A stretch of DNA of 44,039 nucleotides from sequence record PQ511147.1, one strand, 5' to 3'. The position numbers were made by a program, and so were the translations under genes. The DNA is from Escherichia phage NHEP3. The notes under the pieces were generated by a model, which was given only the letters and a program-made list of their open reading frames with translations, was not told the origin of the DNA and searched no databases. Of this stretch, positions 40,599-40,638 are shown one piece after another; the first letter of the stretch is position 1, and every line of letters begins with the position of its first letter.

Positions 40599-40638
40599 TT
40601 TCAAAAAAAAAGCGCCGAGGCAAAATGCGACGGCGCTA
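40599..40638 (-). terminator. orphan terminator-like hairpin with a T9 run (minus strand) inside the divergent promoter region
   Basis: Stem AGCGCCG / CGGCGCT preceded on the plus strand by A9; no minus-strand gene lies upstream of it. Confidence 0.35.

Follow-up and report, generated by a model that had tools for sequence, protein, structure and literature searches.

The window analysed here is a stretch of 44,039 nucleotides from Escherichia phage NHEP3 (PQ511147.1), a virulent E. coli siphovirus of the genus Dhillonvirus. A 601-nt query around the GC-rich hairpin that is the subject of this analysis recovered 171 phage records at 90–99% identity, nearly all of them Escherichia phages of the same genus, including JL1, SSL-2009a, SO-1 and EC115. 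The annotated relative UDS3lw has nearly the coordinate origin of the window. Its replication and recombination genes run leftward from ~40.5 kb down to ~28 kb, and its rightward block starts with a small helix-turn-helix (HTH) protein and the primase-helicase, followed by lysis, terminase and structural genes. This gene map places the hairpin in the sole divergent control region of the genome.

The flanking genes and the elements between them are listed in Table 1. The product of the first rightward gene, with its HTH domain, is a candidate regulator of the control region. On the other side, the first leftward gene is followed by an intrinsic terminator-like hairpin (GGCCCGC..GCGGGCC plus a U tract), which is conserved among relatives; at this place the divergent contig L017 likewise carries a terminator. 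Beyond the hairpin lies GAGACAAUG, where the next gene starts.

Table 1. Features of the NHEP3 control region and its flanks. Positions are those of the window, except in the last row.
Feature	Position	Strand	Description
Replicative helicase-primase gene	41108–43372	+	
First rightward gene	40768–41097	+	109-aa protein, coiled coil and sigma-70 region 4 / LuxR-type helix-turn-helix
Promoter P_R	40708–40736	+	TTGACA 40708–40713, 17 nt, TAGTTT 40731–40736; found by eye
Promoter P_L1	40667–40695	−	predicted; −35 TTGAAA 40695–40690, 17-nt spacer, TG 40675–40674, −10 AATAAT 40672–40667
Palindrome CACGCGTG	40674–40681		8 bp, inside the P_L1 spacer; candidate operator
Predicted ~55-nt short RNA	40604–40659	−	23-nt unstructured 5′ body 40659–40637, then terminator; both ends predicted
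Terminator hairpin	40612–40636	−	outer arms 40636–40631 / 40617–40612; inner GCA 40628–40626 / UGC 40622–40620; on the + strand GCGCCG 40612–40617, 13-nt loop 40618–40630, CGGCGC 40631–40636
U9 tract (A9 on +)	40603–40611	−	at −47 to −55 of P_L2
Promoter P_L2	40563–40591	−	predicted; −35 TTGACT 40591–40586, −10 TAATAT 40568–40563, predicted start ~40555/6; ~12-kb leftward operon
Box GCAACCAAT	40578–40570	−	in the P_L2 spacer
Structured leader RNA	40396–40555	−	160 nt, begins at predicted P_L2 start; covariance-model core 40530–40408
Leader closing helix P1	40555–40548 with 40403–40396	−	GUCGACAG with CUGCCGAC
First leftward gene	39827–40366	−	acidic 180-aa protein, PHROG 3127, function unknown
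Intrinsic terminator-like hairpin	39796–39815	−	3′ of the first leftward gene
Second leftward gene	39524–39775	−	start region within 39773–39815
Leader RNA copies in other loci			L033 1431–1552; L034 1430–1552; L035 1469–1591; L036 1521–1642; also L060–L065

The hairpin, its T tract and their conservation

Read on the minus strand, GCGCCG pairs with CGGCGC and is followed directly by nine U residues. This GC stem and T run had been described in the original prediction, and they are borne out by the sequence, by the fold, by a chance estimate and by relatives. The outer stem has 7 bp, the lowest of them an A-U pair, and is separated by a 2x2 internal loop from an inner stem of 3 bp (GCA/UGC). 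The folding energy is −16.7 kcal/mol, which against dinucleotide shuffles corresponds to z = −3.3 to −3.4. The T9 run is the longest homopolymer of the window, and simulation of 300 first-order Markov genomes gave 0.04 occurrences per 44-kb genome, both strands counted, of eight or more T preceded by a hairpin at least as stable as −12 kcal/mol. An automated terminator scan overlooked the hairpin, since it considered loops of 3–8 nt only and the loop here has 13 nt. The terminator signal belongs to the minus strand only, because on the plus strand no U tract follows the stem. These sequence features support the assignment of the hairpin and U9 as an intrinsic (Rho-independent) terminator on the minus strand.

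For the comparison with relatives we drew on IMG/VR, metagenomes and GenBank phages, which gave 46 related regions (25 distinct), and on an alignment that covers 25 distinct Dhillonvirus sequences. The hairpin motif is present in 15 of the 17 related loci searched, and none of the 15 Dhillonvirus loci checked for it specifically lacks the terminator. The stem is identical in 24 of the 25 distinct relatives and the loop varies at three positions; the A/T run is 8–13 long, and the U tract adjoins the stem in every relative examined. Two divergent lineages carry altered stems. In the Ioannina/LM40P1 lineage (L014, L024, L050) the L014 stem reads UCCCCG/CGGGGA, with two pairs changed on both sides; in L017 it reads AUCCCCAG/CUGGGGAU, with an inner UCA/UGA and a U13 tract at the same place. 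Taken together, two pairs differ in the outer stem (G-C to U-A and G-C to C-G) and, in L017, one in the inner stem (G-C to U-A), and there are no pair-breaking variants in either lineage. For all three lineages the RNA is predicted to adopt a similar fold, in which an open 5′ end precedes the terminator. Since L014 and L017 share the UCCCC arm, only one or two compensatory events need be involved; the covariation, by which the hairpin appears to have been kept in the two divergent lineages, is clean but shallow. A metagenome scan with an HTH protein alignment, which looked for more distant relatives, returned close Dhillonviruses only, and no relatives of L017 were found in the phage collection. 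On this comparative evidence, the hairpin is real and selected.

The same comparisons bear on whether the site acts as DNA, as a replication origin or primer site, a protein-binding palindrome or a genome terminus, which we consider very unlikely. It does lie 470 bp from the primase-helicase gene, and two database records, LT960609.1 (L037, L038) and OK310514.1, are linearised exactly at the A run. These record ends are, however, an assembly artefact: SECphi18 begins and ends with the same 55 nt, a k-mer overlap left where the assembly broke at the homopolymer. Moreover, a relative with the coordinate origin of the window packages its DNA by headful from a pac site (PMC13348001), which lies elsewhere, so that a genome terminus or pac site at the A run was rejected. 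Of a palindrome bound as duplex one would expect neither that it keeps a one-sided T tract adjoining the stem nor that it changes both arms in step while its loop stays similar.

Promoters around the hairpin and a predicted short RNA

The hairpin had been placed between divergent early promoters and called an orphan. Its location within the control region holds; its precise place is between two promoters of the minus strand, P_L1 upstream and P_L2 downstream. The control region as revised has three predicted promoters (P_R, P_L1 and P_L2), with a terminator between both leftward ones. The orphan status does not stand, given that a strong and conserved promoter match, P_L1, lies 25 bp upstream and points at the hairpin. 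It is correct that no minus-strand gene lies upstream: the sole minus-strand ORFs there have 36–37 codons and are broken by 1-nt indels in relatives. A small gene ending at the hairpin (ORF 40636–40746) was rejected on the same broken frame and the lack of a ribosome-binding site. P_L1 is the only promoter found upstream of the hairpin on this strand, and the suggestion that the hairpin terminates antisense or read-around transcription is unsupported, as no other source of leftward transcription was found there.

P_L1 matches the sigma-70 consensus at 10 of 12 positions, has an extended −10 element (TG) and is the best match to a host-type promoter in the genome. Sites scoring at least 10/12 number two in the whole window on both strands (88 kb), against 3.8 in random sequence; with the TG, P_L1 is the only one in the window, against 0.28 in random sequence. 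The consensus scan did not detect P_L1 in L014, where the spacer is 15 nt long (two bases missing) and TGT-AATAAT is retained, nor in L017, where TTGCGC-17-TATTAT was found by eye (8/12). Both lineages retain the hairpin. On the opposite strand, P_R fails the −10 criterion of the promoter scan; its predicted start lies ~84 bp from that of P_L1, and the two promoters stand back to back, in an arrangement like that of the lambda PR/PRM pair.

The number of differences per alignment column among the 25 sequences follows these elements closely. For P_L1 it is 0.17 in the −35, 0.41 in the spacer and 0.00 in the −10. It rises to 2.86 in the 7 nt that separate the −10 from the predicted start and falls to 0.04 in the 23-nt RNA body. 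It is 2.00 between both −35 elements and 2.87 in the 5′ UTR of the HTH gene, and the P_R hexamers (0.00 and 0.17) are conserved on either side of a variable spacer (4.47). Because the −10 of P_L1 ends at 40667, transcription is predicted to start at 40660/40659, 23 nt before the stem; the onset of conservation coincides with this predicted first transcribed base, and conservation continues to the terminator. Within the body (GUCUCAUUGUCUCUUAUUGGUUA), 1 of 575 alignment cells differs, and the body is invariant in 24 of the 25 distinct relatives and predicted to be unpaired. Its very 5′ end, CUCAUUGUCU, is kept in L017, which has nothing else of the body in common with the others. Seeds of small RNAs often lie at the very 5′ end.

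Our preferred reading, to which we give a probability of roughly 0.55, is that the hairpin would be the terminator of a short non-coding RNA made from P_L1 and would also shield P_L2. We infer from the promoter match that host sigma-70 RNA polymerase would start at P_L1, ~23 nt upstream of the stem. The product would be an RNA of ~55 nt, with a single-stranded 23-nt 5′ part, a GC-rich two-tier hairpin and a long U tail; P_L1 and the terminator, as a pair, probably make such a small RNA. Of the three options offered in the original prediction (termination of stray transcription, the 3′ end of a small RNA, or a protein-binding site), the second fits best, as P_L1 points at the hairpin and the predicted start marks the onset of conservation. 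A side effect of the terminator would be to stop polymerases from P_L1 11 bp short of the −35 of P_L2, so that the ~12-kb leftward replication operon would be driven by P_L2 alone. The T tract would at the same time sit at the position of the distal UP-element subsite of P_L2.

Enterobacterial Hfq-dependent small RNAs have a terminator hairpin, a U tail of at least ~7 nt, a U/A-rich stretch before the hairpin and a 5′ seed. The predicted RNA is like them in its conserved 23-nt single-stranded 5′ part, in UUAUUGGUUA before the hairpin, in its GC-rich terminator and in its U9–13 tail, and by analogy its layout would be that of a trans-acting Hfq-type small RNA. It differs in having neither an Rfam match above chance nor an E. 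coli homologue. The best matches of the window in Rfam 15 reached 15.8–23.4 bits, against gathering scores of 39–72, which is the level of chance; host mimicry was rejected, the short RNA unit having no match in 5,426 E. coli genomes. Lambda oop RNA, a 77-nt non-coding regulator that is cis-antisense to the end of cII, offers a second comparison. Like the short RNA predicted here, it is a transcript that host polymerase makes from a promoter to an intrinsic terminator in a phage control region. Unlike oop, the NHEP3 RNA has no predicted overlap on the opposite strand, it shows no sequence similarity to oop, and its phage is virulent. Cis-antisense action was rejected: the start of P_R is to the right of P_L1, and none of the promoters on the plus strand would transcribe through the unit.

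Several observations speak against a short RNA. P_L1 falls below the scan threshold in L014 and L017, and the hairpin is kept in both nonetheless. We found no convincing target within the phage: complementarity to the short RNA extends to at most 9 nt, and the seven 9-mer sites compare with about six expected, a chance frequency. The best of these sites includes the start codon of the second leftward gene; it is shared across the genus and missing in L017, and the chance of such a start-codon coincidence is estimated at ~0.1. At this site, GAGACAAUG of the gene is complementary to CAUUGUCUC of the short RNA. Pairing with the 5′ UTR of the HTH mRNA was rejected, as it amounts by eye to only 6–8 bp and part of the site varies among relatives. 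The invariant body could, alternatively, be a protein-binding site, since GAGAC-N3-GAGAC occurs in it, as does a TAACCAAT box akin to a repeated motif of the genome. As to the UP-like placement of the T tract, it is not conserved, the tract of L017 lying 20 nt from the −35 of P_L2.

A match for ACCGACGAAG in the literature proved to be an unrelated guide sequence, and searches on Dhillonvirus transcription returned no title pointing to transcript mapping. Small RNAs of virulent phages are barely charted.

The architecture of P_L1 also invites comparison with the PR′–tR′ unit of lambdoid phages, in which a strong constitutive promoter gives a short terminated ‘6S’ RNA, a long operon lies past the terminator, and Q acts by antitermination. 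A regulated promoter-proximal terminator of this kind would normally stop P_L1 polymerase at the hairpin; a phage factor, for instance the HTH protein bound at the palindromic spacer, would make the polymerase terminator-resistant and let it transcribe the leftward operon, also past the terminator that follows the first leftward gene. The layout is alike, and the conserved spacer and initial transcribed region of P_L1 could hold the binding and pause elements. The spacer is indeed unusually conserved relative to that of P_R and contains CACGCGTG, and the initial transcribed sequence is invariant, with a −10-like CATTGT around +5 to +10. Further points in favor are the 12-kb operon downstream, with its internal terminator at 39815–39796, and the sigma-70 region 4-type HTH protein encoded next door. 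We nevertheless regard this explanation as doubtful. None of the six neighbouring proteins tested shows Q-family similarity, and the HTH protein matches generic sigma-r4/LuxR HTH models only; the genes downstream are replication genes, not late genes, and have a good promoter of their own in P_L2. It would also leave unexplained why the whole 23-nt body is invariant, beyond a pause site.

P_L2 itself scores 9/12 in the window and 11/12 in L014, and its −35 begins 11 bp past the U tract. Its proximity to the terminator suggests another role for the P_L1 unit, as an insulator or an element of promoter architecture: P_L1 would balance or activate P_R or recruit polymerase, the terminator would discard a functionless transcript, and the T tract would serve P_L2 as an UP element or bend. 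The position of the tract relative to P_L2 is that of the distal UP subsite, as known from rrnB P1-type UP elements. The order of terminator and then promoter also precedes the leader RNA in Arya and BUCT618 (see below). Terminator sequences that contribute to an adjacent promoter have been reported to be widespread, with 3′ ends at most 35 bp, and mostly ~10 bp, from the next start and with the stem doubling as the −35 (Fletcher et al., 2026; bioRxiv 10.64898/2026.08.19.745784). The NHEP3 terminator is like these promoter-coupled terminators in lying directly 5′ of a promoter on the same strand, to which its T tract could contribute. It differs from them in that the gap is ~48 bp, against a coupling distance from 3′ end to start site of ~10 bp in that study, and in that its tract lies at UP-element distance. 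A throw-away transcript, moreover, needs no invariant body, and the L017 tract, at its distance from the −35, is beyond the usual UP range. As an alternative to the small RNA we find this account unlikely; an insulating or UP role in addition to the small RNA may well exist.

The P_L2 spacer contains a GCAACCAAT box. The 8-mer GCAACCAA has 18 sites in the window against 1.3 expected, often paired at 14–35 nt from each other (e.g., 10237/10251, 29387/29406, 31059/31076, 37643/37659, 40578, 43392/43427 and 43799/43830). The copies inspected are in non-coding stretches, often directly 5′ of a −10-like hexamer; the P_L2 spacer has one copy in the window and two in L017. From its distribution, GCAACCAA looks like the box of a phage regulator or of a phage-specific promoter class.

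The structured leader RNA downstream of P_L2

The leader of the first leftward gene had been put at roughly 230 nt and called unusually long. Counted from the predicted P_L2 start (40555/6), it extends ~190 nt to the ATG (40366); the hairpin is ~230–240 nt away from that ATG. That the leader is unusual was nonetheless a good lead: a covariation test indicates a conserved structured RNA rather than a plain long untranslated stretch. The test used a curated alignment of 124 columns and 19 distinct sequences. Five helices (29 pairs) are paired in 97.6% of cells, with two-sided changes in 11 pairs and a covariation score of 0.350. When the partners are slid by 1–3 columns, as a control, 32–50% of cells are paired, 2–3 pairs change on both sides and the score is 0.02–0.065; none of 500 shuffles reaches the observed values. 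Helix P7 has positions with as many as four pair types, and A-U, U-A and C-G occur within Dhillonvirus alone. In a comparison of duplexes, the closing helix P1 covaries by lineage (GACGGGC/GCCCGUC, UAGGGCG/CGCCCUA and GGGCGGCG/CGCCGCCC), and a hairpin P2 with a GGA loop was recognized by eye only. In all, the RNA comprises seven or more helices, and about 70 of its positions are invariant.

A covariance model of the leader (R1) scores the window copy at 140 bits. It finds exactly one copy per carrier, including L065, which is outside the seed, and none in the Dhillonviruses that lack the element. No Rfam match to the leader was found in the window or at nine other loci, and a literature search found no paper that prints the core sequence. 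The leader is the most novel object of the neighbourhood, and it may matter more than the adjacent short RNA unit.

Parts of the leader recur at 77–94% identity (BLAST) in unrelated phages. Carriers include Dhillonvirus, the Drexlerviridae genera Warwickvirus, Hanrivervirus and Changchunvirus, as well as Jilinvirus, Sortsnevirus, Murrayvirus and others, such that at least five genera of virulent enterobacterial siphoviruses besides Dhillonvirus have the element, before unrelated genes. In 10 of the 10 annotated records examined it falls between genes and has the orientation of its neighbours. A −10-like hexamer is seen by eye just 5′ of most copies, and a matching −35 was not found in several of the Drexlerviridae copies. 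In Arya (L034, about 1640–1661), GGGGCTTCGGCCCC-T6 is followed by TTGACA-16-TATAGT and the leader RNA, which is how hairpin, P_L2 and leader follow one another in the window; L061 and L054 likewise have a terminator and a promoter, in this order, 5′ of the leader RNA.

Within Dhillonvirus, the leader is missing from the YD-2008.s and Envy group, from L010, L012, L044, L046 and L049, and from L014 and L017. In the allele of the YD-2008.s and Envy group and of L010, L012, L044, L046 and L049, 14 unrelated nt (GGCATACCGCCCGG) stand in its place between the conserved flanks GTCGACAG and ACACCTAAAC, which marks the leader as an accessory module that is present or absent as a unit. It is found only in virulent phages, before unrelated early genes and patchily among close relatives, a pattern typical of accessory host-interaction functions that makes it a candidate new RNA class.

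We considered several functions for this RNA and rejected them. As a gene-specific riboswitch or operator it is unsuitable, because the downstream genes are unrelated among genera and neither a terminator nor a platform that sequesters the Shine-Dalgarno sequence follows the leader. Against an essential antiterminator speak the Dhillonviruses that lack the leader and keep the same terminator after the first leftward gene. The put RNA of phage HK022, which has ~70 nt and two stem-loops, promotes read-through of downstream terminators (PMC9378689). The leader is like putL, with which it was compared by description and not by sequence, in being structured and in having its 5′ end at, or immediately beside, the start site of an early phage promoter, whatever genes follow. 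It differs from putL in having 160 nt and at least seven helices; this difference and the downstream terminator that leader-less relatives keep speak against a put-type function. An N-terminal protein-coding extension was also rejected, as the frame is closed within 5–37 codons of the start in 9 of 13 other lineages. That the leader in the window is open in the frame of the first gene for 76 codons (40367–40594, minus strand), which gives an ORF of 256 codons from a TTG at 40594, is accidental.

Tentatively, two undescribed RNA genes may adjoin here, a genus-wide early small RNA of ~55 nt that would act in trans on an mRNA of host or phage, and a mobile accessory RNA of 160 nt with a stand-alone function. 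The leader would then be a module common to at least six genera and not specific to any gene; it might, for example, help to take over the host, counter its defences, or bind polymerase or another protein of the host.

The leader is absent from 5,426 E. coli genomes and from 72,556 plasmids. Among 185,579 species genomes, an exact 21-mer of its core occurs once, on a 42.8-kb contig that is labelled as part of a Cereibacter metagenome-assembled genome and that we suspect to be a phage contig.
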